Of a DNA stretch of 64,000 nt, positions 9,661 to 60,960 are shown in pieces. Source of the stretch: an uncultured Alphaproteobacteria bacterium (GTDB lineage Bacteria; Pseudomonadota; Alphaproteobacteria; Rs-D84); NCBI GenBank assembly GCA_937903135.1, contig CALDAH010000024.1, positions 18,471 to 82,470 of the forward strand, written 5' to 3'. The position numbers and the translations under genes were made by a program. Each line of letters starts with the position of its first letter. The stretch's first letter is position 1. The notes below the pieces were generated by a model. That model saw only the letters and a list, made by a program, of their open reading frames with translations. It was not told the DNA's origin and searched no databases.

Positions 9661-10878
9661 ATGACATTTAACGATATTTTAAAAGAATCTTGGCTGTCGA
9701 TCAGCGGTAATAAAATTCGTTCGTTTTTAACCGTTCTCGGGATTGTTATCGGTGTTATGGCGGTGGTTATAATGGTTGCAGTCGGTGAAACGGTTCAGCG
9801 TCAGATTACCGATCAGTTTTCATCACTCGGGACAAATACGATAATGATTCGTGCCGGCGCGGCCCAGAGTGCAGGCGTTCGCACCGGGAATCGTCAAACA
9901 TTAACGATTGACGATGCCGAATTTATCGGCAAGCTGCCCGATGTTATGGCCGTAACCCCGGTTCAGAATAGCGGCGCCCAGGCGATATATGGTAATAAAA
10001 ACTGGGCAACGTCCATGGTCGGCGCATATCCCGATTATACGATTGTTCAAAACATAGAAATGCAAAGCGGTACGTTCTTTGACACATCGGCGGTTCGTAA
10101 TGCATCCACATACGCCGTAATTGGCCCGACAACGGCCCAGGAACTCGGGCTGCCCGAAAACCCCGTCGGCGAGGTAATTCGCGTCCAGAATACGCCGTTC
10201 GTAATTATCGGCGTAACCAAGGCCAAAGGTGACTCTGCCATGGGCAGCCAGGATGATATGATAATTATCCCGATTACAACGCTTAAAAAACGCCTCCAGG
10301 GGAGCCGTTTCCCGAACTCGGTTAGTATGATCGCATTAAAGCTATACGAGGACGCAGATAATACCCTGGCGATTGAAATGATAACCGCCCTATTACGGAA
10401 TCGGCATAAGCTAAAAGAAAACGCGGTTGATGATTTCCAGATAATGGATATGAAACAGGTTATGGAAACAATGAATACTGTAACGGGCTATCTAAAGCTT
10501 TTATTAATCGCGATTGCGGCTGTATCGTTGCTGGTCGGTGCAATCGGTATTATGAATATGATGCTGGTATCCGTTGCCGAACGAACGCGCGAAATCGGTA
10601 TCCGCAAAGCGATCGGCGCACGCGAACGGCAGATAATTATCCAGTTTTTATCAGAATCTATTTTAATATCATTTATCGGATCAATGGCCGGGCTTTTACT
10701 AGGGGTCGGGCTGTCCCAGGGGATCGGGCGATTGGTTTTGGGATATAACGTTCCGTTTAGTATATGGCCCGTTTTATTGTCGGTATCCGTTGCGGTTATC
10801 GTAGGACTGGCATCCGGGGTTGTCCCCGCGCTAAAGGCGGCAAAGCTAAACCCGATTGACAGCCTGCGCTATGAATAA
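9661..10878 (+). CDS. MacB-type ABC transporter permease (FtsX-like domain plus periplasmic MacB domain).
   Basis: N-terminal TM, a large periplasmic domain and a C-terminal FtsX 3-TM bundle. The permease is encoded separately from the ATPase. Confidence 0.8.
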   Translation: MTFNDILKESWLSISGNKIRSFLTVLGIVIGVMAVVIMVAVGETVQRQITDQFSSLGTNTIMIRAGAAQSAGVRTGNRQTLTIDDAEFIGKLPDVMAVTPVQNSGAQAIYGNKNWATSMVGAYPDYTIVQNIEMQSGTFFDTSAVRNASTYAVIGPTTAQELGLPENPVGEVIRVQNTPFVIIGVTKAKGDSAMGSQDDMIIIPITTLKKRLQGSRFPNSVSMIALKLYEDADNTLAIEMITALLRNRHKLKENAVDDFQIMDMKQVMETMNTVTGYLKLLLIAIAAVSLLVGAIGIMNMMLVSVAERTREIGIRKAIGARERQIIIQFLSESILISFIGSMAGLLLGVGLSQGIGRLVLGYNVPFSIWPVLLSVSVAVIVGLASGVVPALKAAKLNPIDSLRYE

Positions 10879-10879
10879 A

Positions 10880-10905
10880 AAACGCCCCACCGGGGCGTTT
10901 TTTAT
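10880..10905 (+). terminator. Rho-independent terminator after the efflux operon.
   Basis: acgccccaccggggcgt stem followed by a T6 run. Confidence 0.7.
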
Positions 10906-11057
10906 TCGGCGGCCCGTCTTTATCCGCCCGGGGGAAATTCTGCAATAAATTCCGATTAAATCACCAAAAACGGGTCGGAAAATGGCCGGGCGGCCATTAT
11001 ATCCCGGGCCAACGACCCACCCGCCACCTGGATTTATCGTTATACGGCCCGTGGTTA

Positions 11058-11092
11058 AAAAATATACCCACCTGATATGGTGGGTATTTATT
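11058..11092 (-). terminator. Rho-independent terminator after infC.
   Basis: On the minus strand a tacccacc/ggtgggta stem is followed by a T-run. Confidence 0.6.
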
Positions 11093-11639
11093 ACTTCGCC
11101 GGGGCGACAATTATTGATTTGGTTCGTTCATCGGGCTTTGATTTAGATTCCAATGCCCCACGTTCGCCGATAATTTCCAGAATACGTGCAAATAATTCCG
11201 GCACTGCATCCTTGCCGCGCGCCAAAACCTTTTTTGACCCCTTGGTCATAACTGAAATCTTTACCTTATTTCCGTCGGATAAAAATTCCAATACTTTTTT
11301 CATTTTGATATTTAAATCATTTTCTTCAATAAACGGCTTTACCCAGACTTCTTTCATCTCGACCGTTTTTTGATTTTTACGAGCCTCGTTCGCACGTTTT
11401 TTCTGTTCGTATTTAAATTTCCCATAATCCATAATTTTAACAATTGGGGGAATGTTATTAGCGTTGATTTCAACTAAATCCATACCTTCGTCCATTGCAA
11501 TCTGCAATGCCTGCGGCGTAGGCATAACCCCCAGGTTTTGGCCATCTTGGCTGATTACCTGAACAGATTTTGCGAAAATCCGATTATTCATGCGCGGACC
11601 TGTGTCACGGCGATTATCACGGTTAAATGTTGGTCTAAT
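11091..11639 (-). CDS. infC: Translation initiation factor IF-3, with an atypical ATT (AUU) start codon.
   Basis: Conserved IF-3 N- and C-domains are present. Reading upstream of the first in-frame ATG gives aaggagcttaccATT…, which is an SD plus the AUU start characteristic of infC autoregulation. Confidence 0.85.
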   Translation of the reverse strand: MRPTFNRDNRRDTGPRMNNRIFAKSVQVISQDGQNLGVMPTPQALQIAMDEGMDLVEINANNIPPIVKIMDYGKFKYEQKKRANEARKNQKTVEMKEVWVKPFIEENDLNIKMKKVLEFLSDGNKVKISVMTKGSKKVLARGKDAVPELFARILEIIGERGALESKSKPDERTKSIIVAPAK

Positions 11640-11682
11640 GGTAAGCTCCTTTGTATAAACCTGGAATGATTATTAATTATTT

Positions 11683-12459
11683 TTACGCGGTTTTCAACAT
11701 ATTTTGAACAGCCTGCAGCGCTATCCACGTGTCACGCTTTGCCGCGGGTTTTAATAATAAATAATTCGGGTGATATATCGGCACGATGCAATACCCCGCA
11801 TCGCTGTTTATTATTTTACCCATTGAATTGGCCAATGATACGCCGCCGATCTCGGTCGCCGGCAGCGCGCCAAGCGTTAATATCACGCGCGGCGATAGTA
11901 TTTCAATCGCGCGGTCTACGAACGGCCGGGACAGCTCCAGCTCTTCGTGCGATGGCGTCCGTCCCCCGGGCGTACGCCAAAAAAGCATCGGGATAATAGA
12001 AACCACATCACGCGACATTCCAATCGCGGCCAGCATTTTATCCATTAGCTCGCCCGCGTTACCGGATAAAATATTCCCGGACGCGTCATCTTCGCTGCCG
12101 GGGATATCGCTAATGATTACCAGGCCACCGGTATTTGCGGCCGCGTGTGGTAAAACGACATTTGTTGCCCCGGCCCGCAACGGGTGATTAAATTCAGATA
12201 TCATTCGCAGTAACGATGGCATATCCGCCGGTCGTGCGGCCATTGCACGTGCAATCTCAATTGACATCGGCTGAATAGGCGTAATCGGGGGAACAACGGT
12301 TGTTGCAACGCGTCCCGATGGCCCGGCCGTGTCTTTTTTAGGGGTCGGATTGCCATCCGCGGGTTTAGCGATGTTATTTGCGGCAAATACGGACGGTAAA
12401 TCCGTTATTTCCCATACAACCCCGGCCATAGTTAAATCCTGTAACGCGTCATATGACAT
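11683..12459 (-). CDS. Uracil-DNA glycosylase superfamily protein (family-4-like), with an N-terminal extension.
   Basis: The C-terminal domain has GNAGELMDKMLAAIG and HPNYLL motifs resembling the family 4 UDG motifs A and B. Confidence 0.5.
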   Translation of the reverse strand: MSYDALQDLTMAGVVWEITDLPSVFAANNIAKPADGNPTPKKDTAGPSGRVATTVVPPITPIQPMSIEIARAMAARPADMPSLLRMISEFNHPLRAGATNVVLPHAAANTGGLVIISDIPGSEDDASGNILSGNAGELMDKMLAAIGMSRDVVSIIPMLFWRTPGGRTPSHEELELSRPFVDRAIEILSPRVILTLGALPATEIGGVSLANSMGKIINSDAGYCIVPIYHPNYLLLKPAAKRDTWIALQAVQNMLKTA

Positions 12460-12536
12460 TTGTGTTTTCCCTTGATATTGCGAACGTTTTATTATACACT
12501 ATAACACGAGCAACAGAAACTCAAGGGAGTATTTTC

Positions 12537-12956
12537 ATGAAAATTAAAAACATTGCTATGTTGGCGGGCGTTGCGGGTATTTTGGCCGCATGTGGTGGGT
12601 CAACAAAGATCGTAGAACCGGCGGATTTAAATGATCAGCGCGTATTTTTCGCGTTTAATTCATCTGAAATTTCTGATGAAGCGCGCGATAACCTGTTAGG
12701 TCAGGCGCTGTATATGAAAAATCACGCAGATACAAAAATCCAAATCGCAGGTAATTGCGACGAACGTGGTTCAACAGAATACAACTTGGCATTGGGTGCA
12801 CGTCGTGCCAACGCAGCCAAGACTGTTATTGTAAAAGACGGTGTAGAAGCGAATCGTATTTCAACAATTTCATACGGCAAAGAACGTCCATTGGTAAAAG
12901 GAACGGGCGAAGCTGTATGGCAGTGGAATCGTAACGCAACAACAACTGTTAAATAA
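12537..12956 (+). CDS. pal: Peptidoglycan-associated lipoprotein Pal.
   Basis: Lipobox ILAAC and an OmpA-like domain (NCDERGSTEYNLALGARRA). An SD (aagggag) lies upstream. Confidence 0.85.
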   Translation: MKIKNIAMLAGVAGILAACGGSTKIVEPADLNDQRVFFAFNSSEISDEARDNLLGQALYMKNHADTKIQIAGNCDERGSTEYNLALGARRANAAKTVIVKDGVEANRISTISYGKERPLVKGTGEAVWQWNRNATTTVK

Positions 12957-24556: not shown

Positions 24557-26812
24557 ATGGCAGAAAAGTTCAAGATTTTATCAGCTGGCAAGGGTAAGGG
24601 TTTGAATATATTCAAATCCAGTGCGTATAAGGAACACGAACGTACGCCCCTGGCGCGTGAGTTTTGGGAACTGCGCTGGGCAATTGGTATATGGCTGGCA
24701 TGTGCGCTGGCGTTCGGTTTATCGTTTATTGCCGAGCATATATGGCGTTATGGCTGGTCGCCGGCATCGGTAAAATGGACGTCGTTATATCTGCATAATA
24801 TGCTAACAACTGGCGGCCTGTCGGTTATTGCCGAGATACCGTCATGGCTATGGCGATGCATTGCTAATACCGATTTGGCGTGTATGACGCCGTTGTTCCC
24901 GATAATTGCGTATTATTTCATGTCGGATAAAACGCTGGTATCGGAATTTAACCCGAATTCCAAGGATAAGTTTGATGAAAAAACATCAAACAAGGCCACA
25001 GCCGATGATATTAAAAAAATGGCCGCAGATCATAAAAACAAAGAAGGGCTGTTTAACGGTTTTATGATGGTTCTGGGGTATTTTAAGAACAAGGGTAAAA
25101 ACGCCCCGTTAAAGATGGATGAATGCTTATCGGCACTATTACTTGCCCCGGCGGGAACGGGTAAAACGGTTGGTGTCGTTATTCCGACGATATTGGAATG
25201 CGATAATGTTTCAATGATTATTAACGACCCTAAGCCTGAATTGAACGAAAAAACATCAGGGTATCGTGCATCAATCGGGCCGACGTTTATTATTAACTGG
25301 GGCGCACGTGATGAACCGGAACGTGGGATATACTATCCGTCATGGAATCCGCTGTCCCCGGAAAATATGCCATCCGACGCCGAGGCAAAAAGTACATACA
25401 TTCAGGTTATCGTAAATACATTAATAGAAGAAGCCCGCGGGAGTGCCGATCCCCATTGGTCGCAAAGTGGGCGTGCGGGTCTGACCGGATTTATTAATTT
25501 TATTGTATCAAAGGTTGAACGGGCCAAGGCAAACGATTATTTCTATTCGCGTATATCCAGCGGCGAATTTGACGCAGATGATGCGGCGATTCTGGCTGAC
25601 TATTATTTAACAATGACAAGCGACCCGAATGCGATCGCCGCGTTGGCATTGCTGCAAAGGGGCGAACTAAACGCGATGAATTATGTCCATGTCGGCACAT
25701 GGGACGGTGTTCCGGCCGAATGGCGCGGCCGCGAAGCGTCGTTCCCGATGTTTTTAGCATGGTACGCCGAGGGGCTGCTGCGCGTCGGCCGGGAAATTGA
25801 AAACCGCAAGCGTCAGGGCGATCAAATGGTTATGATGGCCGACCCGATGAAAGATTTTCTGTTATCGGCGGTGAACGAGGCGCAGCTATACTCATACGAA
25901 CAAGATGCCGTAACCGCGCTATTAAACCTGGCCAATACACCGGATAAGGAACGTGGATCGGTTATATCTACGATTAATACGGGGCTGAATATTTTCCGAC
26001 ACCCGGCCGTAAATAAACACACACAGCATTCGGATTTTCATTTTTCAGATATCCGCGGTATGCGTGACCCGCGCGATGGAAAAATTAAACCGGTTACGAT
26101 CTATCTGTCAATTAACGTCGCGGATTCTACGGCATTCAGTCAGATTACAAGTATGTTTATTGAACTGCTGTCAAAATACCTGATTGCGCACAAACCCGAC
26201 AGCGAGGCAAACGGAATAAAACAAGGCCCGTACCCCGCGCTGTTCGTATTGGACGAAATGCCGACGATGAATAAGCTTGAGGCGATTATCCAAGGGCCGG
26301 CGGTCGGCCGCGGCCAGAAAGTATCATACCTGATCGTCGGGCAGGACATAAGCCAGATTGCCGAAAAATACGGGGACAAAGCGGCCGATACAATTATCGC
26401 CAATACCGCGGCAAAGGTTATCTTGCGCGTAAATGAACCGATGACCGCGCGACGCTTTTCGGAAATGATGGGCGAAAAAATGAAAAAGAAAACGGTCAAA
26501 GGCCCGGATGGCAAAGATACCGAACAGACCGATAGTAGCCCGTTATTTACACCAATGGATTTAATGACACTGGATAAAAGCAAGCAGCTGGTTTTATTCC
26601 AAGGATTTTATAATCGCCCGATTGAAGCGTCCCAGGAACGCTGGTATCTGAATAAAAGCGATATAGAAAAACAGCTCTATCAGAAGGTATCCATGGGCGA
26701 AGCGTCCCCTGTACCGGAATTTATAATAAAATCCCATCATGCGGCACTGGGATACAGCGGCGATGCGCGTTTATACGACCCGGTCGCAAAAGAGGTTAAG
26801 GTATTAGCATAA
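24557..26812 (+). CDS. virD4: Type IV secretion coupling protein (VirD4/TraG family).
   Basis: Two N-terminal TM helices. Walker A (LLLAPAGTGKTVGVVIPTIL) closely resembles VirD4. A Walker B/DE region is also present (LFVLDEMPTMNKL). Length is 751 aa. Confidence 0.65.
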   Translation: MAEKFKILSAGKGKGLNIFKSSAYKEHERTPLAREFWELRWAIGIWLACALAFGLSFIAEHIWRYGWSPASVKWTSLYLHNMLTTGGLSVIAEIPSWLWRCIANTDLACMTPLFPIIAYYFMSDKTLVSEFNPNSKDKFDEKTSNKATADDIKKMAADHKNKEGLFNGFMMVLGYFKNKGKNAPLKMDECLSALLLAPAGTGKTVGVVIPTILECDNVSMIINDPKPELNEKTSGYRASIGPTFIINWGARDEPERGIYYPSWNPLSPENMPSDAEAKSTYIQVIVNTLIEEARGSADPHWSQSGRAGLTGFINFIVSKVERAKANDYFYSRISSGEFDADDAAILADYYLTMTSDPNAIAALALLQRGELNAMNYVHVGTWDGVPAEWRGREASFPMFLAWYAEGLLRVGREIENRKRQGDQMVMMADPMKDFLLSAVNEAQLYSYEQDAVTALLNLANTPDKERGSVISTINTGLNIFRHPAVNKHTQHSDFHFSDIRGMRDPRDGKIKPVTIYLSINVADSTAFSQITSMFIELLSKYLIAHKPDSEANGIKQGPYPALFVLDEMPTMNKLEAIIQGPAVGRGQKVSYLIVGQDISQIAEKYGDKAADTIIANTAAKVILRVNEPMTARRFSEMMGEKMKKKTVKGPDGKDTEQTDSSPLFTPMDLMTLDKSKQLVLFQGFYNRPIEASQERWYLNKSDIEKQLYQKVSMGEASPVPEFIIKSHHAALGYSGDARLYDPVAKEVKVLA

Positions 26813-30481: not shown

Positions 30482-30552
30482 TATAAATATATTTTTTGTG
30501 TTTTTATATAAAATACGATAAAATAATTCATGGATTAGATAAGGAGAAAGTA

Positions 30553-31200
30553 ATGAAAAAAATTGCATTATTTATGGCATTTGCCGGACTGCTGTCCGCG
30601 TGTACAACGGTAAATCCATATACAGGCCAGACCCAGACGTCCAAGGCCGTATGGGGATCTGCGATCGGCGCGGCAACCGGGGCAGCGACCGGCGCATTGG
30701 TCGCGAAAAAAAGCGGCACGGGCGCGATCGTTGGTGGTCTGGCCGGGGCAGCACTTGGCGGGGGCGTTGGATATTATCTGGACGCGCAAGAGGCAGAACT
30801 GCGTCAGGAATTGGAATCAACCGGGGTAAGCGTTGTTCGCGCCGACGACAGCATTCGTTTGGTTATGCCGGGAAATATTACATTTAAAACAGATTCATCG
30901 GATATAAACGCATCATTTTATGCGACATTAAATTCCGTTGCAAAGGTATTAAAGAAATACAGCAATTCAACCGTAATGGTATCCGGATTTACCGACAGCA
31001 CGGGCAGTGCGGAATATAACCAGGCACTGTCAAAGCAGCGTGCGACGGCCGTTGCCGCATACCTGGAAGGTCAGGGCGTCGCAGCACGTCGCTTTGAAAT
31101 TATCGGCATGGGCTCGTCCAATCCGATTGCGTCAAACGATACGGCCGCCGGGCGTGCCCAGAACCGCCGCGTAGAGATTAAAATTATTCCGAATAAGTAA
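30553..31200 (+). CDS. OmpA-family lipoprotein with a glycine-zipper segment.
   Basis: Lipobox LLSAC, a Gly-zipper (GSAIGAATGAATGALVA…GGLAGAALGGGVGY), and a C-terminal OmpA-like domain (TDSTGSAEYNQALS..RA…RRVEI). Confidence 0.7.
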   Translation: MKKIALFMAFAGLLSACTTVNPYTGQTQTSKAVWGSAIGAATGAATGALVAKKSGTGAIVGGLAGAALGGGVGYYLDAQEAELRQELESTGVSVVRADDSIRLVMPGNITFKTDSSDINASFYATLNSVAKVLKKYSNSTVMVSGFTDSTGSAEYNQALSKQRATAVAAYLEGQGVAARRFEIIGMGSSNPIASNDTAAGRAQNRRVEIKIIPNK

Positions 31201-47100: not shown

Positions 47101-47559
47101 TTATTCCGCGATGAATGAAATTTGATTTGTTTGTGATGAAAAACAATGCGACCCCGGATCGGTTTCATATCCGTTAACTAATACCGCGCTGGCCCATTTT
47201 GGAATCGCCGTGGTAAAATAATCACATTCACCTTCGCTGAGGTTAGTTAGGTTAATAGAAAACGTTTTACCATCCGCGCCGGCCGATACGGACCAATTAT
47301 TATCGCCAATCGGTGCATTGGCGTTTTTAAGTGCCCCGGCCTTAATCAAATAATCCACAGAGAGGCCCGAGTACGTACCGCGCACCTGCATTAGCAGTCG
47401 TACGTTTTTCGCAATGCTGTCTATTTCCGATGTTGCAATCGCACGTATCTGGTTTTGACGTATTGCGCGATATATTCCGATCGTACTTACGGTCATAACA
47501 CCGGCAATTGCCATAACGCCAATAATTTCAATCAAAGAACGTCCTGATTCTGCCTTCAT
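47101..47559 (-). CDS. Prepilin-type N-terminal domain protein (type IV pilin or pseudopilin-like).
   Basis: The N-terminus MKAES-G-RSLIE-IIGVMAIAGVMTVSTIGIY fits the class III signal, with Gly at -1, Glu at +5 and about 20 hydrophobic residues. A strong SD (gcaagaggaaacataATG) lies upstream. Length is 152 aa. Confidence 0.55.
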   Translation of the reverse strand: MKAESGRSLIEIIGVMAIAGVMTVSTIGIYRAIRQNQIRAIATSEIDSIAKNVRLLMQVRGTYSGLSVDYLIKAGALKNANAPIGDNNWSVSAGADGKTFSINLTNLSEGECDYFTTAIPKWASAVLVNGYETDPGSHCFSSQTNQISFIAE

Positions 47560-49660: not shown

Positions 49661-51022
49661 ATGATTTTGCAATCGCAACGTGGTAATTTTTTACTTCAGG
49701 CATTATTAGCACTTGCGTGCATATTTGCATTCATTCCGTTTTTTGCAAACACTATTGCCGCGCGCGACACTAACGAACGAATGTTCGCCGCAACCGGTCA
49801 AATTGAACAGGCCCAGGCCGCCGCGCGAATTTTCATACGTGAAAACGCAAACGCGCTGCCATATGATAAAACGGTTATCGCCGGTAATCAATTCGCCGAT
49901 ACGCTTGAAGCGTACGGACTGCCGCTGGGGTTTGTACCGCGAACGGCACTGGGACAGGATATTGCATTGGTTATAAATAAAACCGCGACAGATATAACGG
50001 CGCATCTGGAAGTTACGGGCGGTGATCTATCGGCGATTGCCCGGGCAGAGCTAATACGCCGTATCGGTTTTTACGCCACGCCGTTCGGGGATGCAATACG
50101 CGTCGGAATTGCGCTGGAAAATATTTATTCAGATGTTGTTCGCCGAAATGAACCCGATACGGATAATAACGGTTTTTTAACTAATCTGGATATGGGGGGA
50201 AATACATTTAATAACGCCGGCACGGCGATTGCACGCCAAGGGGATTTCGCCACGGGGGAATTTAAAACACTTTCCATCATCGGGTTTGAAAACGGGCGCA
50301 GGGTTCGCAATTCAATTGCTGCGATTTCCGCGAATAAGGCGGTGTTTCAAACCAAATCAGGCGAGGCGGCATTATCCATTACCCGCGGGGTTTTATCGGC
50401 GGATGAAATAAATGCAAAAACAATTGCTAAGTTCGGGGACACGGGGAATTTTACATCAAATTCCGCATCGGTTTATGATTTTGCAATGACGGCGGGGCGG
50501 ACGGGTTTTTCCGGCCCGGATAAATGGAACGTTCGCGGAAACCTTGTATCGGATCGGGTTACGTTTAGTGTTGAACGACTGGACGTGGATTCATTTGTAA
50601 ACGCGTCCCGCGGCCAGGATGTTTATATTACCCCGGATGATTTGGAATATAATTCGCGCAGTGGAATTGACGCCGGGGTTTTAATCGCATCAAATATAAC
50701 GCTGCGCGATCAAACGTCCGCTGCATTGGCGAACGGCGAAAGCGGTGCTGTGGTGGTTGATATTCGCCCGGCCGGGACGTCTGTGCTGCCGGATGTTTTG
50801 CTGGAAACAATTGATAATAACGCGTTTAGTATAATTGCCCGGCCGGGGGCGAACGATGATAAGATGCAGAATTGTCGTACGATAATATCTGATCTGAATG
50901 CATCATATAACCAGCGTTCGCTGGCGCAATATATTATTTGCCAGTATGTATATTGGCAGCGACTGGAAAAAAGAATTGATATAAAGGAATGTTTGTTATC
51001 AGGCAGGGGGGGCTGTGTATAA
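49661..51022 (+). CDS. Large pseudopilin-like protein 1 (prepilin-type N-terminus, Gln at +5).
   Basis: The N-terminus is …QR-G-NFLLQ-ALLALACIFAFIPFF. An SD (aggaggg) abuts the ATG, and a TTG at 49667 is an alternative start. The gene overlaps the next gene by 8 nt. Confidence 0.45.
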   Translation: MILQSQRGNFLLQALLALACIFAFIPFFANTIAARDTNERMFAATGQIEQAQAAARIFIRENANALPYDKTVIAGNQFADTLEAYGLPLGFVPRTALGQDIALVINKTATDITAHLEVTGGDLSAIARAELIRRIGFYATPFGDAIRVGIALENIYSDVVRRNEPDTDNNGFLTNLDMGGNTFNNAGTAIARQGDFATGEFKTLSIIGFENGRRVRNSIAAISANKAVFQTKSGEAALSITRGVLSADEINAKTIAKFGDTGNFTSNSASVYDFAMTAGRTGFSGPDKWNVRGNLVSDRVTFSVERLDVDSFVNASRGQDVYITPDDLEYNSRSGIDAGVLIASNITLRDQTSAALANGESGAVVVDIRPAGTSVLPDVLLETIDNNAFSIIARPGANDDKMQNCRTIISDLNASYNQRSLAQYIICQYVYWQRLEKRIDIKECLLSGRGGCV

Positions 51023-52217
51023 ACGGAATGGGATTTTTTCGGATCTATCGCGTGGCGCCAGTGTAACAGAGGTTTTACTGGCCATGGCAATTGTTACCAT
51101 GGCGGCCCCGTTTGTTTATAACCAGATCGCCCAGACCAACCGGGATATTCGCGATATATCCATGGCACGTGATATAATCGCACTGCGTGATCCGGCGTTG
51201 AATTTTATTCGCATAAACCAAGACTCGTGGCCCGATGCCGCGCAGATACAATTATCAGACGATGAATTGGATCAGATATCAGATACAGCATTTGCGGGAT
51301 TTATTGATAAATATTCTGTTAAGGGCGCAGGTATTACGGATGTTTATTTGGCGTTTAATACACATGATTCACAGTTGCATGCGAACCGCATCGCGCGTCA
51401 GATTGGTGATAGCGCGGCCGTGGTTGACGCATCCGGCGTTGCATATGGCAATACATGGGCGATATCCGCACCGGATTTAAAGCCCGGGGATTTAATATAT
51501 CGCATATCACGTGATTTTTCCGGGAACGATAAAACCAAATACCTGCATCGTGCAACGTCCGGGGATGATAATTTAAATGTTATGCAGCGTGATTTACATA
51601 TGGGCGGGTTTAATGCGTATAATATCGGGACTGCGTCGGCGGAATCTGCGCGGATTAATTCGGCCGTTGCGATGTTTGTCACATCGGACGATGTGTCGGC
51701 CGAAAATATATATTTTTCATCGGGCGCAAATATGGACGGTGGAAACGCTGCAATTGGAACTATGCGCGTATCGGGTGATATAACGGGATTTCGGAATATA
51801 TACGCGGATAATCTAAACGGCGGGGGATATACCACGGCCGGGCGTATTATTGCCGATCGCGCACGGGTAAATAATTCTGTAAACGTTGCCGGGGATTTTG
51901 TTTTAAAATCAGATTCTGCGCGAACGATCAGTGCGTTTACCGGGATTCGGGCAAATTCTGTTTATACAACATCAATAACCGCATCCGAGATGGTGTTCTA
52001 CGGTAACGTCGGGCTGACGGTATCGGGCGAGCTGTTAATGTCAACAACCCCTGCGTTAAAGATCGGCGGTTGGTCATTCCCATCGCTGACGCCGCCACGG
52101 TTTGATGAACTGTCGCTGTCGCGCGCGGCAATCCCGGCAACGCCGGTCGCGGATGAATTTGCGCCGCTAATGTCGTCCGGATGGCAGGATATTCCCCCAA
52201 TAACAGAGGTACAATGA
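51015..52217 (+). CDS. Large pseudopilin-like protein 2 (GTG start).
   Basis: The N-terminus is …SR-G-ASVTE-VLLAMAIVTMAAPFVY. A GGGGGG SD lies upstream. The gene overlaps the next gene by 4 nt (ATGA). Confidence 0.45.
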   Translation: MYKRNGIFSDLSRGASVTEVLLAMAIVTMAAPFVYNQIAQTNRDIRDISMARDIIALRDPALNFIRINQDSWPDAAQIQLSDDELDQISDTAFAGFIDKYSVKGAGITDVYLAFNTHDSQLHANRIARQIGDSAAVVDASGVAYGNTWAISAPDLKPGDLIYRISRDFSGNDKTKYLHRATSGDDNLNVMQRDLHMGGFNAYNIGTASAESARINSAVAMFVTSDDVSAENIYFSSGANMDGGNAAIGTMRVSGDITGFRNIYADNLNGGGYTTAGRIIADRARVNNSVNVAGDFVLKSDSARTISAFTGIRANSVYTTSITASEMVFYGNVGLTVSGELLMSTTPALKIGGWSFPSLTPPRFDELSLSRAAIPATPVADEFAPLMSSGWQDIPPITEVQ

Positions 52218-53527
52218 AAACGCAAAATCGGATCTTTAACAACGAAGCGCGCGGCAGCATGCTGGTTGAATTACTGCTAAGTGTTGCGCTGGCGGTATTG
52301 ATTATTCCGTTTATATTTCGCTATCAGCATGATGCGGCCCGGCGCGCTGAAAATATTGCAATCGTTAATCAGATGGAAACAGTTCAGGCCGCATTAGAAC
52401 GATATATTATTGATAACCGCGTGGAATTATTAAAAACCGTTGGCAAAAATATTACGCGCGTTGAAATCACAGATTTAATTAACTATGGCGTTCCGGAAAG
52501 TATTGTTGATAAATTCGGGGCCGACTATCAGCTGCGTGTATTAAAAACAAATGATATAAATAATCAGTCCACGCTTCAGGGGGTCGTTGTTTTATCATCG
52601 CGCGATATCACACCGGTTCGTACGCGTGAAATTGTTGGAATCGGCGGCACTTCTATGGGGTTTGTTGATGGTAATCATGCGTATGGATCATTCGGGGCAT
52701 GGCATACGGATTTAATTGATCTCGGGATCGCGGGCGACGGCGGTGTTATTCAGACCACGCCCGTTCAGCGTGATAATGCGCTTTATCTATGGCGCGTCCC
52801 GTCGGATAACGACAGCGATGCGACAATGATGACGTCATTAAACCTTGGTGGGCATGATATTACAGGGGCGAAGTATTTTGATATCGCCACCGCCCGATTT
52901 GACGAGGTTATTAATTCATCAATTATTGCGGCCGGGGATATTATTTTTCAAAACCGCACGACCATAGATAAAACATTTATTGCAAACTCTGCGGCGGTTG
53001 CCGGTACATTATCTGCGGATTCGCGTAATATGGAAATCACAGGTGCATTAAAGCTGGCGGATGTTGGAAAATTTTCAAACTTTACAACGAATGATTTATG
53101 GGTAACGAACTTAAATCTATCGGGGTTAACGGTATCCGGGGATGAATACGGTGCGGTTATGATAAACATAAATCGTTCGCTGGATATGAACGCCGGTCGT
53201 ATTGATGCGATGTTTGCAACGGTCGGTTTTACAGGATCTATTACGCCGCGATTGGTCGTCCGCGAAAGAATAGAAGATTCAACAAACCCTGAATATTTTT
53301 GGGATACAGAATATCGTGTTGCGAACTTTATGGATCTGACCTCGCGAGAGCTTAATCGCATGGCGACATTAATCGTGGCGCGGGAAAAGGGTGGCAATAC
53401 TGCCGCGGGCAAAGCATTCGCAGCGGTTGCCGCGAACAAGAACGCAACAGTCGCGGATTTTATGAACGTAATTACAGATATTCAGAATAAAGTCCGCGCA
53501 AAATATCGCCTGTTGAATTTAGAATAA
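52214..53527 (+). CDS. Large pseudopilin-like protein 3.
   Basis: The N-terminus is MKTQNRIFNNEA-R-G-SMLVE-LLLSVALAVLIIPFIF. An SD (agagg) lies upstream. The 'N/R-IF' segment before the RG is shared with protein 2. Confidence 0.5.
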   Translation: MKTQNRIFNNEARGSMLVELLLSVALAVLIIPFIFRYQHDAARRAENIAIVNQMETVQAALERYIIDNRVELLKTVGKNITRVEITDLINYGVPESIVDKFGADYQLRVLKTNDINNQSTLQGVVVLSSRDITPVRTREIVGIGGTSMGFVDGNHAYGSFGAWHTDLIDLGIAGDGGVIQTTPVQRDNALYLWRVPSDNDSDATMMTSLNLGGHDITGAKYFDIATARFDEVINSSIIAAGDIIFQNRTTIDKTFIANSAAVAGTLSADSRNMEITGALKLADVGKFSNFTTNDLWVTNLNLSGLTVSGDEYGAVMININRSLDMNAGRIDAMFATVGFTGSITPRLVVRERIEDSTNPEYFWDTEYRVANFMDLTSRELNRMATLIVAREKGGNTAAGKAFAAVAANKNATVADFMNVITDIQNKVRAKYRLLNLE

Positions 53528-55477: not shown

Positions 55478-55556
55478 AATACGACAAAACCATTATTTTT
55501 GTTTGTCAGAATATCTTTTTATGATATAATGAAACAATAAATCATGGAGTGAGTCA

Positions 55557-58500
55557 ATGTTTGTCCTGAAAAAAACTATCAGTTTTATCGCTGTTTTCAG
55601 CGTATTACCGGCGGCATTCGCGGTTACGGCACGCCCGAGTATTGTAATGAAGGCGTCACCACGTATGCCGACAATGACGGCAAATATAAACAATAATAAT
55701 ACAACCACGTCCGGGACAACGGTTAATTCATCAACCCTATTGGCGAACGCCGAATGCATAGAGGCGTATACTTCATGTATGAAATCAGCGGATGCATGTG
55801 GCCCGAATTTTGAAGAATGCACAAACAAGGTATTATTCCACGGAAAAATGCCCCAGTGTTTAAGTACACTTGCCCAGTGTTCAGCGGCCGGTGTAACCAG
55901 CCTTTACGGGACAAGTAATACTGCCGCATTATCCACGGTCGCATCAACCAACAGCTATGGCGAGGTTACAAACTACACATACCCGACCGACGGCAGTGTT
56001 TTAGGGCAGTTAATCACCGGTGCGGCGATAACTAACCGTTATGATACGTCAACCTGCGTTCGTCGTTATACATCGTGTTTAAAGAAAGACACCGTATGCG
56101 GTAATGATTTTGAATTATGCACAACAAACGCAGAATTTAAAAAACAACGCGTATTTTGCGATTCAACCCTTGCACGCTGCCAGGGCGAAGGGATAACAGA
56201 ATTATTCGGATCAGCCTCTCTAACGGCGGCCCCGAGTGCGAGCAGTCGCGTCGGTGAAATGATCGCCGAAGGTGCGGCACTGGCGGCCGTTAATGCCGTT
56301 TCAACGTGTTATAAGGTAATTGATAACTGCATCCTGGGGGCATGTGCGGCGAACCCGTATAAGTGTTATGAAAACACCCCGGTTGTAAATGCCGAATTGG
56401 CCGATGCAATAAACAGCGGCGATGATAAAAATCCGGATATAAACAATACCGATACGACCACGGCGTCGTCGGTCGCGGCATATATCCGCAATTCGTGCAA
56501 GGATACAATCGGCGCAAATAAATACTGCTATGCGACATTTATCGGTAACGGTAATATGCCAACCGCATCCCAGCTGCGCGACGAAGATAACCAAGACGAA
56601 ATTTATTCCGAAGCCTACAGCGCACGTATGGGCGACGGGATGAAGGCACAGATAACAGAGCTGGTAAATAAATTTGATACCAAGGCTAAAAATAAATGTA
56701 TTGATACAATTAAATCCTGTGCGATGCGCGTTTGCGGCAGTGGCAGTGGCGCGGCATGCTATTCCCAGGTATTCGGATCAACGTCTAAATCCATTAACGC
56801 CGGGAATAATTATAATGAAATTAAAACCGGATGCGCGGCGATTGTAAATACGGACGCGAATTGCAAATATGCAGCTAAAAATACAACTGGCGTTGGCACG
56901 TATTCATATGCATTTATTAACACAGATGCATTTGATACGCTGTTCCCGGAATACGACACCAACAGCACAGACAATGACCCGATCGGCGTAATTGCGTCGC
57001 TGAACGCGTCATTGGCAAACAGCTACAGCGATGCGGCGATTGCGCAGATGAAAAAGCAGTGTCAGTCGGTTGCCAGCAGCTGTGTTAAATCAATGTGCGG
57101 GGCAGATTATCAAAACTGCTATCGTAACCGTACGGATGTATATTCGTCATTAACAGATACAGGTGATACACGTTTTGATAAATCCATGAACAAGGTAGGC
57201 GGCGTACTTGACTACACTATCGTTCTGGGGCTGTGCGTTGATACAGTTAAAAACGCATCTGTATGCGAAGAACATTTGGCAATTGAACAACAAAAATTAA
57301 AAATGAACAATTCAAATGCCGCCACCAGCTGGGGTGATGCAAATAACGTCCGCGGCGGCTGGATTGATGCCGGCTCAACATCCAAGATGGAATTTGCAGC
57401 CGAGAGTGTTCAGGCCGTTGATGAAAACGGTAATAACCTCTGCACGGTCAAAGGTGGCACGGAACAGGGCGTATGCTATACCGTTGACGCCAACGGCAAG
57501 GTATATGATACCCCGGCGATGATTTCGTATTCTACGTATGTTGAATCCCAGGCGGCAAATACGTTGTTTAAAGATTTAATATACGACCTAGAGATCGAAG
57601 CCCAGGCAAAATATAACGCGAAACTAACCAAAGAACAGAATATGTGCATGGCCAATAATGATGGTGGCCTGATGGGGAATCGTGATGCCGGCAGCACATT
57701 TATGTGGGTAAAACTGCGTTCTGCGAAAGTCCCGGCGAACTATGCGACGGCCGGACTTACCCCGAAACAGTTCGTGGCCAGCAATGATTTATACGGTTCA
57801 TTCTGTCGCGTTCGTGTTACATTGCAATCCGACGATCGTCGTATCCAGGATGTAATTAACAAAGGCGCAGACTGGGCAACCGCGTATTTCGCAACAGGTG
57901 ACGTATTTACCTGCGGCAGCTGGATACCGGCCGAAGCATTAGAAGAAATTGCAAAAGACGTTGCAAAAGATGCAACCGAGGATCAGGCCGCGGCACAGAA
58001 ACGTACCCGGACATGGCTGACCATATTAGGTGGACTGGGCGGTACAACGGGCGGCGCGTTCTTAGGTGAATCTATCCGCACCGGGAATACACTGGGTGGC
58101 CTAACGGGGCTAGGTGACGGGAATAAGGCGGATAAGAGCTCTAAAACCGATGCTAAAATGTGCCTTAATAACCTGGAATATGCCGCAGATGATCTAAATG
58201 ATGATAGTCTGTCAAATGCTGCGTACTCTATTGACACGGCCATAAGCTATGCTAAAAAGGCAAAGGTTTCGGATTCTGCGCTGACCGTTGCATCAAATGC
58301 CGCCAGCAATTTAAGAAAGGTTGTTGATGAATCCAGCGTTAGCGCCGAAAACAAAACAGTTGATAAAACCACTGCAATCAGAGAGGCCGAAACCGCGATT
58401 CGCAATCTGGAAACACTATGCGAACGCGTTGACGATGAAAAAAGCGATAAAGATAATAGTGGCAAGGGTTGGATTACAGGCGTTTCAACCGTCGCAATGG

Positions 58501-58682
58501 GTACGGCAGGTGCATTGTTGATTAACAAGGCCACCCGTGACATCCAGCAAACAAATCTGGATAAGGCACAAAGAGAGGCCTATGATGAATGGATGAATGC
58601 GATCGGGCGTCATATCAACTGCTATATCGGCGCAGAAGAAGCCGGACAGTATGGTGATATCGTATCAACGTCGCTGGAATAA
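55557..58682 (+). CDS. Giant cysteine-rich secreted or surface protein (1041 aa) with an internally duplicated Cys module.
   Basis: The signal peptide MFVLKKTISFIAVFSVLPAAFAVTA follows an SD (ggagtgag). An Asn/Thr-rich stretch comes next. Two modules of about 95 aa are clearly repeated (…CIEAYTSCMKSADACGPNFEECTNK…C…C and …CVRRYTSCLKKDTVCGNDFELCTTN…C…C). Further Cys-pair motifs follow. The C-terminal region has Gly-rich hydrophobic stretches (LTILGGLGGTTGGAFLG and GVSTVAMGTAGALLI). Confidence 0.55.
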   Translation: MFVLKKTISFIAVFSVLPAAFAVTARPSIVMKASPRMPTMTANINNNNTTTSGTTVNSSTLLANAECIEAYTSCMKSADACGPNFEECTNKVLFHGKMPQCLSTLAQCSAAGVTSLYGTSNTAALSTVASTNSYGEVTNYTYPTDGSVLGQLITGAAITNRYDTSTCVRRYTSCLKKDTVCGNDFELCTTNAEFKKQRVFCDSTLARCQGEGITELFGSASLTAAPSASSRVGEMIAEGAALAAVNAVSTCYKVIDNCILGACAANPYKCYENTPVVNAELADAINSGDDKNPDINNTDTTTASSVAAYIRNSCKDTIGANKYCYATFIGNGNMPTASQLRDEDNQDEIYSEAYSARMGDGMKAQITELVNKFDTKAKNKCIDTIKSCAMRVCGSGSGAACYSQVFGSTSKSINAGNNYNEIKTGCAAIVNTDANCKYAAKNTTGVGTYSYAFINTDAFDTLFPEYDTNSTDNDPIGVIASLNASLANSYSDAAIAQMKKQCQSVASSCVKSMCGADYQNCYRNRTDVYSSLTDTGDTRFDKSMNKVGGVLDYTIVLGLCVDTVKNASVCEEHLAIEQQKLKMNNSNAATSWGDANNVRGGWIDAGSTSKMEFAAESVQAVDENGNNLCTVKGGTEQGVCYTVDANGKVYDTPAMISYSTYVESQAANTLFKDLIYDLEIEAQAKYNAKLTKEQNMCMANNDGGLMGNRDAGSTFMWVKLRSAKVPANYATAGLTPKQFVASNDLYGSFCRVRVTLQSDDRRIQDVINKGADWATAYFATGDVFTCGSWIPAEALEEIAKDVAKDATEDQAAAQKRTRTWLTILGGLGGTTGGAFLGESIRTGNTLGGLTGLGDGNKADKSSKTDAKMCLNNLEYAADDLNDDSLSNAAYSIDTAISYAKKAKVSDSALTVASNAASNLRKVVDESSVSAENKTVDKTTAIREAETAIRNLETLCERVDDEKSDKDNSGKGWITGVSTVAMGTAGALLINKATRDIQQTNLDKAQREAYDEWMNAIGRHINCYIGAEEAGQYGDIVSTSLE

Positions 58683-58710
58683 AAAAATCGCCCCATATGG
58701 GGCGATTTTA
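58681..58710 (+). terminator. Rho-independent terminator after the giant Cys-rich gene.
   Basis: aaaaaaatcgccccatatggggcgatttta. Confidence 0.65.
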
Positions 58711-59332
58711 TTGATGTATAATCAACGCCTGTGGCGTTTTATATCCGGCCCTGGGATGATATATGCGCCAGAGGGGGAATGTTCCAACAGCGGATGCTGA
58801 ATAATCAAACGCATATATCGGTTGCCTAAAATAATAAATCGCACATCCCATAATATCGCTGCCGCCCTGTTCGTGATTGGTGTATCTCCAATTTTTTTTC
58901 AGGTATTCATGTGCCCTAGAATATCGCTGCGCACCGTTCGGGGTTTATATATATCTTTGTATGGTTTATATGCATTCGCATGCGGCGTCCCCCGATTTAT
59001 TATTGAATAACATATATTTTTGATTGTGCGAATCGGACGCCCCGGCGTGGCGTTTGTGCGGGGGCCTTTTGGCATGTTATTTCATCTCCATAAACCCAGA
59101 GACGTGCCGCCGCACCCGCGGGATGCCCGATATTTTAATAAAAATTTCCCGGCGGTTTCCGGGCGGACCGGCAGTTACCGGTTTTTTTCTCTGGCGCGCA
59201 TTGGGCCGCACGATGTATGCATATATTATATACTAAATGATATTTTTTCCCCTGAATACGAACTTTTGCGCCGCATGTATGCCGGGGGAATTATGTATTG
59301 CCCGCGGCCGGTCGGGACGATGCGGTAAAATA

Positions 59333-59356
59333 AAAATCCCCGGGCGGGGATTTTTT
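59333..59356. terminator. Terminator (aaaatccccgggcggggatttttt) at the 3' end of the minus-strand secreted-protein gene.
   Basis: Perfect GC stem with flanking A- and T-runs. Confidence 0.6.
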
Positions 59357-60647
59357 ATGGACACATCTCCAATTGATTTAAAACATTTTGAACGTCGTTA
59401 TTAACCGATACCGTTATCTCGCGCTGCAGGCCATCGGTGTATGTATAATAAAACTTTTGGCGGGCAAATTCCGGCATCTGTTTATATACCTCGGCAAACG
59501 GGGCCAGCATTGCGCTGAACCATTGGCGTCCGCGGCACAGACATCCGTTTCGTACGTCCGCCGCAACTGCCGCCGTCGCGGTATTCGGGTATTTCGTATC
59601 AAAGTCTTTGTCCGTCATCATTAAACAGCGCGCCCCTAGGCCGTAAAAATTAGCATCATCGGCCAAGAATTTATATACCAGGCCATCGGATGCCCCCGCC
59701 TGGCGCAGGGAATATGCCATCCCGTCTGTACAGCATGCGTTTGCCGACCCCATTAGCATTTTATAGCGCTGCAGCAACGGCGCGGCCGCCGGATGTGATG
59801 CGCTAATCTCAGGGTTGCAGCGGGCGGCGTTGATAAATTCCGCCATATTTATATCACGGATTTTCGGGCTTCGCGGCGATACGGTTTCGCGAATTATTGG
59901 TTTTCTGCGCCATATCTCGCATTCGGTCTCGGCCTCAAACGGGCAGCCATCGGCGCGGCCGAATGTCTGCTCTACTATCACCGTCATATCCTGGGCGGTA
60001 TATTCCGGGCGCGGCGCAGGAACGGCGACAGCCTCTGGGGCGGGGGGCGTTTCTGTGACCGAAACGTTTTCGGCCCAGATATTCCCGGATGGCCGTTTAG
60101 GGCTCAGCAGCTCTTCTACGCGGGCACGCGTCGCCGCCGCATCCGCCATATTTTGGTTATATAGCTCGGTTATATTTATATCTTCGGTCATTACCGCCGG
60201 TGCGATCGGCCGAGTGTCTGCCTCGCGCAGGTAAATCTCGGGCAGTGGCTCTAAGAACCAGTCGCTAAAATCCTTGGACTTATAATTTACAATAGAATCG
60301 TCCCAGATCGGAACGCCATCGCGCCAGTCCACCGTTTTATCCGCCGCGCGTGCGGTATATTTACCCGTCGTGCCATCCCATAATGGCGCACGAGTATCCG
60401 CCGGGACCGGCTTTATAGATAATGTTTTTACCGAACGCATTGGAATCTGCGTTGCATATATATATTCCGTCGGACCGGCATATGACGGTACGGCCGCCAT
60501 CGGGGCGGGTAATACTGCCGGCTCTTGAATCTGGTCTATATATAAAGGTTCAATATAACATCCCGCGCCAGTGCATTCGGACGCCATGGCCGGAATTGCC
60601 CCACATAAACATATCAGGGACGAAAAAGTTACAATTTTCATTTTCAT
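59355..60647 (-). CDS. Secreted hypothetical protein.
   Basis: The ORF extends to 60875, but the signal-peptide-like MKMKIVTFSSLICLCGAIPAMASE begins at 60647. The protein is Pro/Ala-rich with 10 or more Cys, and no family was recognised. The start is uncertain. Confidence 0.4.
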   Translation of the reverse strand: MKMKIVTFSSLICLCGAIPAMASECTGAGCYIEPLYIDQIQEPAVLPAPMAAVPSYAGPTEYIYATQIPMRSVKTLSIKPVPADTRAPLWDGTTGKYTARAADKTVDWRDGVPIWDDSIVNYKSKDFSDWFLEPLPEIYLREADTRPIAPAVMTEDINITELYNQNMADAAATRARVEELLSPKRPSGNIWAENVSVTETPPAPEAVAVPAPRPEYTAQDMTVIVEQTFGRADGCPFEAETECEIWRRKPIIRETVSPRSPKIRDINMAEFINAARCNPEISASHPAAAPLLQRYKMLMGSANACCTDGMAYSLRQAGASDGLVYKFLADDANFYGLGARCLMMTDKDFDTKYPNTATAAVAADVRNGCLCRGRQWFSAMLAPFAEVYKQMPEFARQKFYYTYTDGLQREITVSVNNDVQNVLNQLEMCP

Positions 60648-60960
60648 AATACGAATCATATCATAAAAAGCAGTGCTTTGAAAATATAAAATTTGATCTG
60701 GCGGCATTATTAGTAAGGTTTTTTCGGTATATATCGGTATATATAAAACGAATCGTTGCCGATTCTGTCGTATTTTTACAATAAATTTATAAAAATGAAT
60801 CGGTTTTTTGCATAAAACCGAATCGTAAAAGGGGTAAAAAAACAAAAAAATCAAAAAAATAAAAAAATTTTTCAATAGGATAAAATGGCGGAAATCCGGC
60901 GTTTTTCCTATGTTTTTATGGCCGGGGATAAATTTTTTTAAAATTATTTTTCAAAAAGCG

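Follow-up and report, generated by a model that had tools for sequence, protein, structure and literature searches.

The 64,000-nt stretch analyzed here – the window, positions 18,471 to 82,470 of contig CALDAH010000024.1 from an uncultured alphaproteobacterium of the Rs-D84 lineage – carries at 55557..58682, on the forward strand, an intact ATG-initiated open reading frame (ORF) for a cysteine-rich protein of 1041 residues. Sequence comparisons show this to be a strongly conserved protein, predicted to be exported through a Sec-type signal, whose conservation is interrupted by a hypervariable insert lying between two Gly-rich hydrophobic segments. We give about an even chance to an arrangement with three parts: a periplasmic body stapled by disulfides, a split glycine zipper that anchors it in the outer membrane, and a variable head at the cell surface. 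More tentatively, and with less confidence, we suggest that this may be a previously unrecognised form of surface display, in which the loop of a glycine-zipper hairpin has become a recombining hypervariable bundle and would act as a strain-specific determinant of the cell, phage or antibody that is engaged. Variable surface determinants and glycine-zipper outer-membrane anchors are both known ideas, and we found no description of an arrangement that combines them.

The insert stands out against an otherwise conserved protein. Conservation is high from residue 61 to residue 800 and reaches its minimum at about residues 855-980; in four clusters of relatives that are at least 90% identical, the insert has 59-88 variable columns per 100 residues and the core (residues 61-800) has 0-7. 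Within one cluster, corresponding to one species, bodies that are 98.3-99.7% identical carry inserts whose identity falls as low as 22% (median 68%). The boundaries of this variability coincide with the conserved Gly-rich segments, and the insert ranges from 71 to 339 residues across the family, with one lineage having an extra ~120 residues that include added cysteines. The region is organized as follows:

58014..58121, forward strand: Gly-rich hydrophobic segment 1, residues 820-855, with the core W-LTILGGLGGTTGGAFLG
58122..58469, forward strand: hypervariable region, residues 856-971, a predicted four-helix bundle with a conserved Cys pair (C869/C955) near its base
58470..58532, forward strand: Gly-rich hydrophobic segment 2, residues 972-992, W-ITGVSTVAMGTAGALLI, with a KD18 hydrophobicity score of 1.52

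Nucleotide comparisons place the variation just as sharply. Among five alleles from one species (lineage 1), nucleotide diversity is ~0.01 over 9 kb, rises to 0.20-0.27 over the ~390 nt of the insert, and drops again, to 0.017, over the final 150 nt; for the closer alleles dN/dS is 1.2-3.7 in the insert versus 0.07-0.15 elsewhere, and one allele is saturated at synonymous sites. An independent lineage (lineage 2) has a dS of 0.02-0.10 in the insert and 0.03-0.08 outside it, with dN 20-50 fold higher inside, giving dN/dS values of 0.86-1.84 within the insert and 0.03-0.07 outside (Fisher p = 6e-6 to 8e-15). The insert is the sole within-gene diversity hotspot in the 9-kb loci compared, the other variable stretch being an intergenic GIY-YIG indel.

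Structure prediction indicates that the insert is folded. An initial AlphaFold 2 (AF2) run with 26 close homologues gave a predicted local distance difference test (pLDDT) score of 59.7 and was replaced by a run with 80 diverse sequences, which has a mean pLDDT of 80, a predicted template modelling score of 0.57, and 497 residues at or above 90. The insert is modelled confidently as a four-helix bundle (residues 857-881, 885-901, 906-927 and 937-960; pLDDT 88-96), and its variable sites have alpha-helical periodicity (peak 95-100 degrees, permutation p = 0.018), a pattern in which each helix appears to vary on one face and to keep its core. The number of cysteines in the insert ranges from 0 to 8 and is even in 172 of 174 proteins; the pair near the base of the bundle recurs in the alleles examined, and C869 is at least 90% conserved. 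Because cysteines are gained and lost in pairs, disulfides are to be expected, and both body and head are thus likely to be extracytoplasmic.

Alleles differ by indels and wholesale replacement as well as by substitutions. One allele is common to two lineages, with inserts that are 98% identical on bodies that are 94.6% identical, where the typical cross-lineage insert identity is 25%; near-identical inserts in different lineages argue that heads have been swapped by recombination. The head allele of the window itself has no close relative among the 174 proteins. A diversity-generating retroelement (DGR) was considered as the source of variation and ruled out: the window holds no second copy of the variable DNA (the closest match elsewhere in it spans 40 nt at 77.5%), and neither its scanned ORFs nor the called genes of related loci include a reverse transcriptase. 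Nor is there a silent donor copy of the variable DNA within the 64 kb, so that neither a DGR nor a silent cassette inside the window is the likely source. A 106-residue GIY-YIG (homing-endonuclease-like) gene lies just 3′ of the target gene in four of five strains of one species (L087 6266-6586, L088 6264-6584, L089 6307-6627 and L090 6295-6615), in varying orientation, and is absent from the fifth (L086). Such a mobile nuclease could stimulate local recombination at the adjoining, hypervariable gene end.

The rest of the protein consists of the following features, the coordinates again being those of the window:

55557..55622, forward strand: Sec-type signal peptide, residues 1-22, MFVLKKTISFIAVFSVLPAAFA followed by VTARPS, with predicted cleavage after A-F-A, as read from the sequence
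55626..55676, forward strand: post-signal motif T-A-R-P-S...R-M-P-T-M, residues 24-40
55677..55736, forward strand: Asn/Thr-rich low-complexity linker of varying length, residues 41-60 (conservation 0.37-0.59; pLDDT <50)
55737..56036, forward strand: module A1, residues 61-160, helical, with six Cys at gaps of 7, 7, 7, 13 and 7 (pLDDT 84-95)
56037..56246, forward strand: module A2, residues 161-230, a duplicate of A1
56247..56636, forward strand: module B1, residues 231-360, helical, with Cys gaps of 7, 5 and 7 and then a C-x9-C pair (pLDDT 76-95)
56637..56987, forward strand: module B2, residues 361-477 (profile-profile alignment by hhalign, B1-B2 83%, E = 9e-6)
56988..57356, forward strand: module B3, residues 478-600 (hhalign B1-B3 88%, B2-B3 84%)
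57357..58013, forward strand: conserved alpha/beta domain and long helix, residues 601-819, with five Cys (629, 640, 697, 750 and 786)
58533..58682, forward strand: C-terminal helix and beta-hairpin tail, residues 993-1041, with the invariant C1022, plus the stop codon (pLDDT 79-94)

The original prediction, made from the letters of the window, had described a Sec signal peptide, an Asn/Thr-rich segment, a duplicated module, further paired-Cys motifs, and Gly-rich hydrophobic stretches within a helical C-terminal region, and all of these are borne out, the paired motifs being the three copies of the B module (C251-C324, C381-C436 and C502-C570). The predicted signal peptide has a basic n-region and a hydrophobic h-region whose KD18 of 2.16 is the maximum for the protein, and N-termini are conserved throughout the family. 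The motif that follows is retained as T-A-R-P-S-[VI]...R-[MA]-P-T in the most distant members, with R26, R36 and P38 at least 90% conserved in 80 sequences of identity down to 22%. AF2 predicts disorder at this position, and the motif could be a docking or processing signal; its use as a general sorting tag was ruled out, since no other exported ORF of the window carries it.

Modules A1 and A2 have identical Cys spacing (67/74/81/88/101/108 and 167/174/181/188/201/208), a local alignment score of 139 relative to a shuffle mean of 28.5 (z = 19; reached by 0 of 500 shuffles), and an hhalign probability of 99.6% (E = 6e-24). The B modules, with 4+2 Cys each (C251/258/263/270+314/324, C381/388/393/401+426/436 and C502/509/514/521+560/570), align in all three pairs at E = 3e-6 to 9e-6; unrelated control pairs (A2 with the alpha/beta domain, A1 and B3 each with the hypervariable region) score no higher than about 6%. 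Similarity between the two kinds of module is weak, short and placed around the Cys motif (A1-B3 81%, A2-B3 51%, other pairs <1%).

The 38 cysteines – six in each of the two A and three B modules, and eight others – are all invariant in 26 relatives sharing 60-68% identity with the window protein, and 171 of 174 mature proteins have an even number of cysteines. In a 29-sequence alignment of distant members C697, C750, C786 and C1022 are invariant; across 80 sequences C697, C786 and C1022 remain so and C750 is at least 90% conserved. The tail motif W-x-x-x-[VI]-G-x-x-I-x-C...G-x-Y-G-D is likewise retained in the most distant members. With five Cys in the alpha/beta domain and one in the tail, a disulfide from tail to body is implied, and the chain would thus return to the side of the membrane on which the body lies.

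No characterized family accounts for this architecture, as the original prediction had supposed, and no known fold does. Pfam and NCBIfam (both at E <= 0.1), PHROGs and PADLOC gave no family for the window protein, and with distant relatives the same scans returned weak Gly-rich matches solely (C19orf12 and DUF2076, in 2-3 members). Searches of PDB sequences, whether with the protein alone or with a profile of 80 sequences, found nothing convincing, the C-terminal region of the profile matching YaxA and XaxA marginally (E = 0.04-0.06). Foldseek with both AF2 models against PDB, and against the viral folds of BFVD, retrieved generic four-helix bundles and long helical proteins, none at E <= 0.001. 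Membership of the ClyA/YaxA/XaxA group was rejected on these values, and an autotransporter or type V adhesin was rejected on the lack of a Pfam match and on a C-terminal 250 residues predicted to be helical, with just a three-strand tail. In the AF2 model residues 61-600 are all helical, residues ~617-790 form an alpha/beta domain of strands and helices (pLDDT mostly 74-94) followed by a long helix, the Gly-rich residues 820-857 and 962-992 are of low confidence, and the end is a confident helix with the three-strand tail. The body fold, as modelled, has no detectable relative and is a candidate new fold built from two kinds of disulfide-stapled helical module.

The two segments that flank the insert resemble glycine zippers. 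Both are ~18-19 residues long with 26-34% Gly and (G/A/S)xxxGxxx(G/A/S) motifs; segment 1 (34% Gly) is uncharged in 75 of 80 sequences and has the zipper motif in 73, and segment 2 is uncharged in 56 and has the motif in 61. The window provides a comparator at 30496-31200 (forward strand), a lipoprotein (lipobox LLSAC) in which a glycine zipper (PF13488, E = 3e-8) precedes an OmpA C-terminal domain, as in YiaD. The KD18 scores of the two segments, 1.0 and 1.5, bracket that of this zipper (1.35), and the inner-membrane helix of LptF/G in the same genome scores 2.98. A conserved K/R-x-R-x-W on the body side of segment 1 would violate the positive-inside rule for an inner-membrane helix. When the insert is removed in silico, three of ten family members reach PF05433 at 24.6-24.8 bits (cut-off 24.2; profile positions 1-40 of 43), and four further members give weaker matches to the same family.

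The proteins known as two-transmembrane (2TM) glycine zippers (SlyB, YfgH, YiaD, Pcp and the Rickettsia 17-kDa antigen; PF05433, PF13488 and PF13441) resemble the target in having two short, uncharged hydrophobic helices that are rich in Gly/Ala and show GxxxG-type spacing, and in a hydrophobicity below that for inner-membrane retention; their flanks are both periplasmic, as is proposed for the target. The target differs in having no lipobox, in the ~760-residue Cys-rich body attached to it, and in the position of the helices, which are not adjacent but have a folded insert of 71-339 residues between them where the known proteins have a very short loop; unspliced, it matches no zipper family (E <= 0.1). 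SlyB, YfgH and YiaD of E. coli have been described as lipoproteins of the outer membrane whose transmembrane 2TM glycine zipper oligomerises (bioRxiv 10.64898/2025.12.22.696046).

By analogy with these proteins, we propose that the N-terminal ~760 residues (two A modules, three B modules and the alpha/beta domain) would fold in the periplasm and be stapled by ~15-16 disulfides. The chain would then cross the outer membrane along Gly-rich segment 1, form the disulfide-pinned four-helix bundle on the cell surface, and re-cross along segment 2, leaving the conserved C-terminal tail to pack against the body, probably with C1022 in a disulfide. Together the segments would amount to a 2TM glycine zipper like those of SlyB, YfgH and YiaD, but split, its hairpin loop enlarged into a display domain; as such zippers usually self-associate, an oligomeric ring is likely. 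Agents outside the cell – phages, host antibodies or partner cells – would see the head alone, and this exposure would lead to diversifying selection and strain-to-strain swapping, with recombination across the conserved zipper-coding DNA exchanging one head for another. The head most likely serves strain-specific recognition or attachment at the cell surface, or is an unavoidably exposed target, carried in either case on an essential, conserved envelope scaffold.

Several observations count against this proposal. Region-wide dN/dS values near 1 fit relaxed constraint as well as positive selection. The spliced segments of the window protein itself match no glycine-zipper Pfam family, the matches of its relatives are partly compositional, and a reciprocal search with the family profile ranks the genomic zipper first at a non-significant E = 0.43; AF2 gives both Gly-rich segments a pLDDT below 50. 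Known 2TM zipper proteins are lipoproteins delivered by the Lol pathway. The signal peptide of the target ends PAAFA/VT, with no Cys at +1 and hence no lipobox, which leaves a route into the outer membrane unexplained. Some 19 disulfides would need an oxidant, and no Dsb- or VKOR-type oxidase is seen in the 64-kb window; the host is anaerobic and without a respiratory chain (PMC12306168).

In an alternative reading the whole protein is extracellular, either as a component of a surface layer or fibril or as a released product, exported by a type II or type IV-pilus-like machine related to the nearby pilin-like genes. The Gly-rich segments would then be flexible or self-associating hinges with the bundle at the tip, and the body would be shielded in an oligomeric lattice. 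We regard this as unlikely, though it has several attractions: folded, disulfide-rich, Sec-dependent proteins are typical type II secretion substrates (general knowledge), a PilS-like pilin and three pilin-like genes (G-x4-E/Q) lie within 2-8 kb and are syntenic in ~68 of 83 loci, AF2 does not make confident helices of the Gly-rich segments, and there is neither a lipobox nor a beta-barrel to account for insertion into the outer membrane. The pilin-like linkage, however, is lost in divergent members, the target gene is predicted to be transcribed separately, and neither a secretin nor a secretion ATPase is seen in the window. Moreover, the segments are too hydrophobic, too free of charge and too conserved in length (down to 22% identity) for usual exposed linkers, and an exposed body should vary among strains, yet the bodies are 98-99.7% identical within a species.

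A signal peptide followed by two hydrophobic segments is also the classical pattern of an inner-membrane protein, here one with a periplasmic body, two ordinary transmembrane helices and the bundle as a weakly constrained cytoplasmic loop; the KD18 of segment 2 (1.4-1.5) is in its favor, and a dN/dS near 1 is possible for a poorly constrained linker. The paired cysteines of the insert point instead to disulfides and so to a non-cytoplasmic location, the segments score 1.0 and 1.5 where a true inner-membrane helix of the same genome scores 2.98, and the K/R-x-R-x-W motif would be on the periplasmic side of segment 1. Helical periodicity and a confident fold do not describe a floppy linker, and neither cross-lineage exchange of alleles nor a 20-fold local peak of diversity is expected of a cytoplasmic loop, making this topology very improbable. 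Slighter still is the prospect of a contact-dependent pore former or fusogen whose Gly-rich helices enter a target membrane in the manner of ClyA, YaxA or XaxA, with the bundle setting specificity. It could draw on the marginal YaxA/XaxA profile matches, on the recurrence of glycine zippers in oligomeric membrane channels (Kim et al. 2005, as cited in bioRxiv 10.64898/2025.12.22.696046), and on the proposal that Rs-D84 bacteria take metabolites from partners (PMC12306168). Those profile matches, however, are non-significant and lie in low-information helical sequence, no toxin fold was matched in PDB, and insertion of the hairpin would push a folded, disulfide-bonded domain of 116-339 residues through the target membrane; conservation like that of a housekeeping envelope protein and single-copy presence in every species suit a structural role better than a toxin.

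The outer-membrane display reading has partial parallels among known variable envelope proteins, here compared largely from general knowledge. Anaplasma Msp2/P44 and Orientia TSA56 likewise have a conserved framework with a central strain-variable region that is replaced by recombination, and belong to Alphaproteobacteria with reduced genomes. They are, by contrast, beta-barrels or otherwise unrelated proteins without Cys-rich helical modules, and Msp2/P44 draws on silent donor cassettes in its own genome, of which the target has none within the 64-kb window; Pfam and NCBIfam scans found no similarity between the target and the variable antigens of Rickettsiales. F-type TraN (PF06986) is also a large, Sec-exported, Cys-rich envelope protein with conserved ends and a variable recognition region, but the target matches no Pfam or NCBIfam TraN model (E <= 0.1) and no F-type transfer operon lies nearby. 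The middle repeats of Helicobacter pylori CagY are tandem helical modules with regular Cys in an envelope-spanning protein of a host-associated bacterium; CagY, unlike the target with its invariant Cys modules, varies within the Cys repeats, and it ends in a VirB10 domain. No similarity between CagY and the target was detected.

Of the roles offered by the original prediction, that of a surface antigen or adhesin gains support from the hypervariable insert between the Gly-rich segments, yet the Cys repeats it had highlighted are the most conserved part of the protein (0-7 variable columns per 100 residues); being the least variable within species, they behave as a core structural body and not as a variable antigen. 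A secreted effector is disfavored by the paired, anchor-like glycine-zipper segments. The gene is not a pseudogene, as it is intact and full-length in at least 134 species-level genomes, where it is essentially single copy, and body dN/dS is 0.03-0.15.

The family is restricted to Rs-D84/Enterousia-type Alphaproteobacteria. A word-indexed search returned 904 proteins, and the best 120 of these 904 are all full-length, 58-100% identical and unnamed; an exhaustive search gave 262 matches among 1.84 billion representatives. The window protein is an exact match to a protein called on NCBI metagenome-assembled genome (MAG) GCA_948762305.1, and relatives come from gut MAGs labelled 'Candidatus Enterousia', 'uncultured Alphaproteobacteria' and 'uncultured Rickettsiales', including one circular genome of 958,618 bp; those distant members that have names all come from MAGs of Alphaproteobacteria or Rickettsiales. 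Family members at 19-31% identity retain the signal peptide, the 'ARPS...R-x-P' motif, three B modules, the alpha/beta Cys pattern, both Gly-rich segments and the C-terminal tail, and have one A module, which indicates that duplication of A is specific to the Enterousia clade. A scan of viral contigs found no relative of the family.

Bacteria of the order Rs-D84 have genomes of less than 1 Mb, do not respire and lack most biosynthetic capacity; the proposal is that they rely on partner cells, from which they would take metabolites (PMC12306168). Ca. Enterousia and other Rs-D84 bacteria occur widely in the guts of humans and animals and are thought to live at the expense of other cells, and the protein takes up 0.3% of such a genome. 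Its presence in every species sampled, putative strong private promoter and sole within-gene hotspot make it the best current candidate for an interface with partners, phages and host immunity. The variable head is a ready strain-typing marker for metagenomes, and the conserved body marks the lineage and may offer a handle for antibodies in enrichment or imaging; were the split zipper to hold, the small set of alpha-helical outer-membrane anchors would gain a surface-display role.

Two public records, L006 (CAVGNU010000002.1) and protein P0107, are labelled 'Bacteroides fragilis' and 'Muribaculaceae bacterium', yet carry the target gene with its syntenic neighbors, and are probably mis-binned or mislabelled MAG contigs. 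The most divergent member, P0255 (901 residues), is encoded at 10001-12706 of locus L085, a 46-kb contig of a 'Rickettsiales bacterium' MAG (JGI 3300042594), flanked by phage-type genes for a T7-like terminase, portal, capsid protein, lysozyme and DUF5131, together with DnaB. It may thus lie beside a prophage or a gene-transfer-agent-like element; P0255 itself has no PHROGs or viral-contig match.

Signals flanking the gene are consistent with a transcription unit of its own:

55503..55530, forward strand: putative promoter-like site from consensus matching, TTGTCA, a 16-nt spacer and TG-n-TATAAT, with an extended -10 (11 of 12 matches)
55546..55549, forward strand: ribosome-binding site GGAG, 7 nt 5′ of the ATG, as read off the sequence
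58684..58709, no strand assigned: perfect 11-bp GC-rich hairpin between A and T runs, directly 3′ of the stop codon

Of 22 orthologous loci, 13 have the promoter motif at -54/-55, and 'ATGGAGTGAG' is found upstream of nearly every orthologue. The hairpin, likely a bidirectional intrinsic terminator, recurs no more than 30 nt from the stop codon in 21 of the 22 loci, with stems that differ in sequence yet stay complementary. The gene is therefore predicted to be monocistronic, with its own putative promoter and a conserved terminator.

The position near pilin-like genes and an rRNA operon noted in the original prediction stands, but linkage to the pilin-like genes is not obligatory. Three pilin-like genes end 2 kb upstream, and the 16S rRNA gene is 2.7 kb downstream with one gene intervening. 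The upstream block – the three pilin-like genes, a Zn-ribbon/DUF3426-like gene, a small exported protein and then rluD – is syntenic in ~68 of 83 loci, separated or inverted in ~15, and absent beside one distant homologue. An operon with the pilin-like cluster was ruled out by the separate promoter and terminator and by these synteny breaks in divergent loci. The neighborhood is thus conserved as the rest of this small genome is, with no evidence of a functional tie. The three pilin-like ORFs (49661-53527, forward strand) are unusually large, at 400-453 residues, and have no pilin-family match in Pfam or NCBIfam; two have a G-x4-E prepilin motif (RG/ASVTE and RG/SMLVE) and the third has Q at +5. 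Across dnaX from them, a 152-residue ORF at 47101-47559 (reverse strand) matches the PilS type IVb pilin N-terminus (PF08805, 23.8 bits; cut-off 22). The 64-kb window shows no secretin, no assembly or secretion ATPase and no prepilin peptidase.

Downstream of the target, the ~650 bp between its terminator and the next gene (58710-59354) contain no convincing ORF and no match to an Rfam family, and include back-to-back terminator-like hairpins at 59148-59184. The next gene, convergent at 59355-60707 (reverse strand), encodes an exported protein of ~450 residues, rich in Pro in its middle and in Cys toward its C-terminus (ANACCTDG, NGCLCRGRQWF) and without a Pfam, NCBIfam or PHROGs family; a homologue (57-82% identity) was detected in 39 of 83 related loci, 3.3-10.6 kb from the target and in varying orientation.

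Overall, the window is made up of housekeeping DNA from a diderm bacterium, with genes for LptD, LptF/G, LpxD, Skp, OmpA-family proteins and a BamB-like protein, and for NusA, IF2, FtsK, MutS and ParAB in addition to the rRNA operon. It also includes, at 24557-26812 (forward strand) and 29 kb from the target gene, a lone VirD4/TraG-type coupling protein gene (PF02534, E = 5e-56) among housekeeping neighbors (an rRNA methyltransferase, a pseudouridine synthase and MreB), recalling the scattered type IV secretion genes of Rickettsiales.

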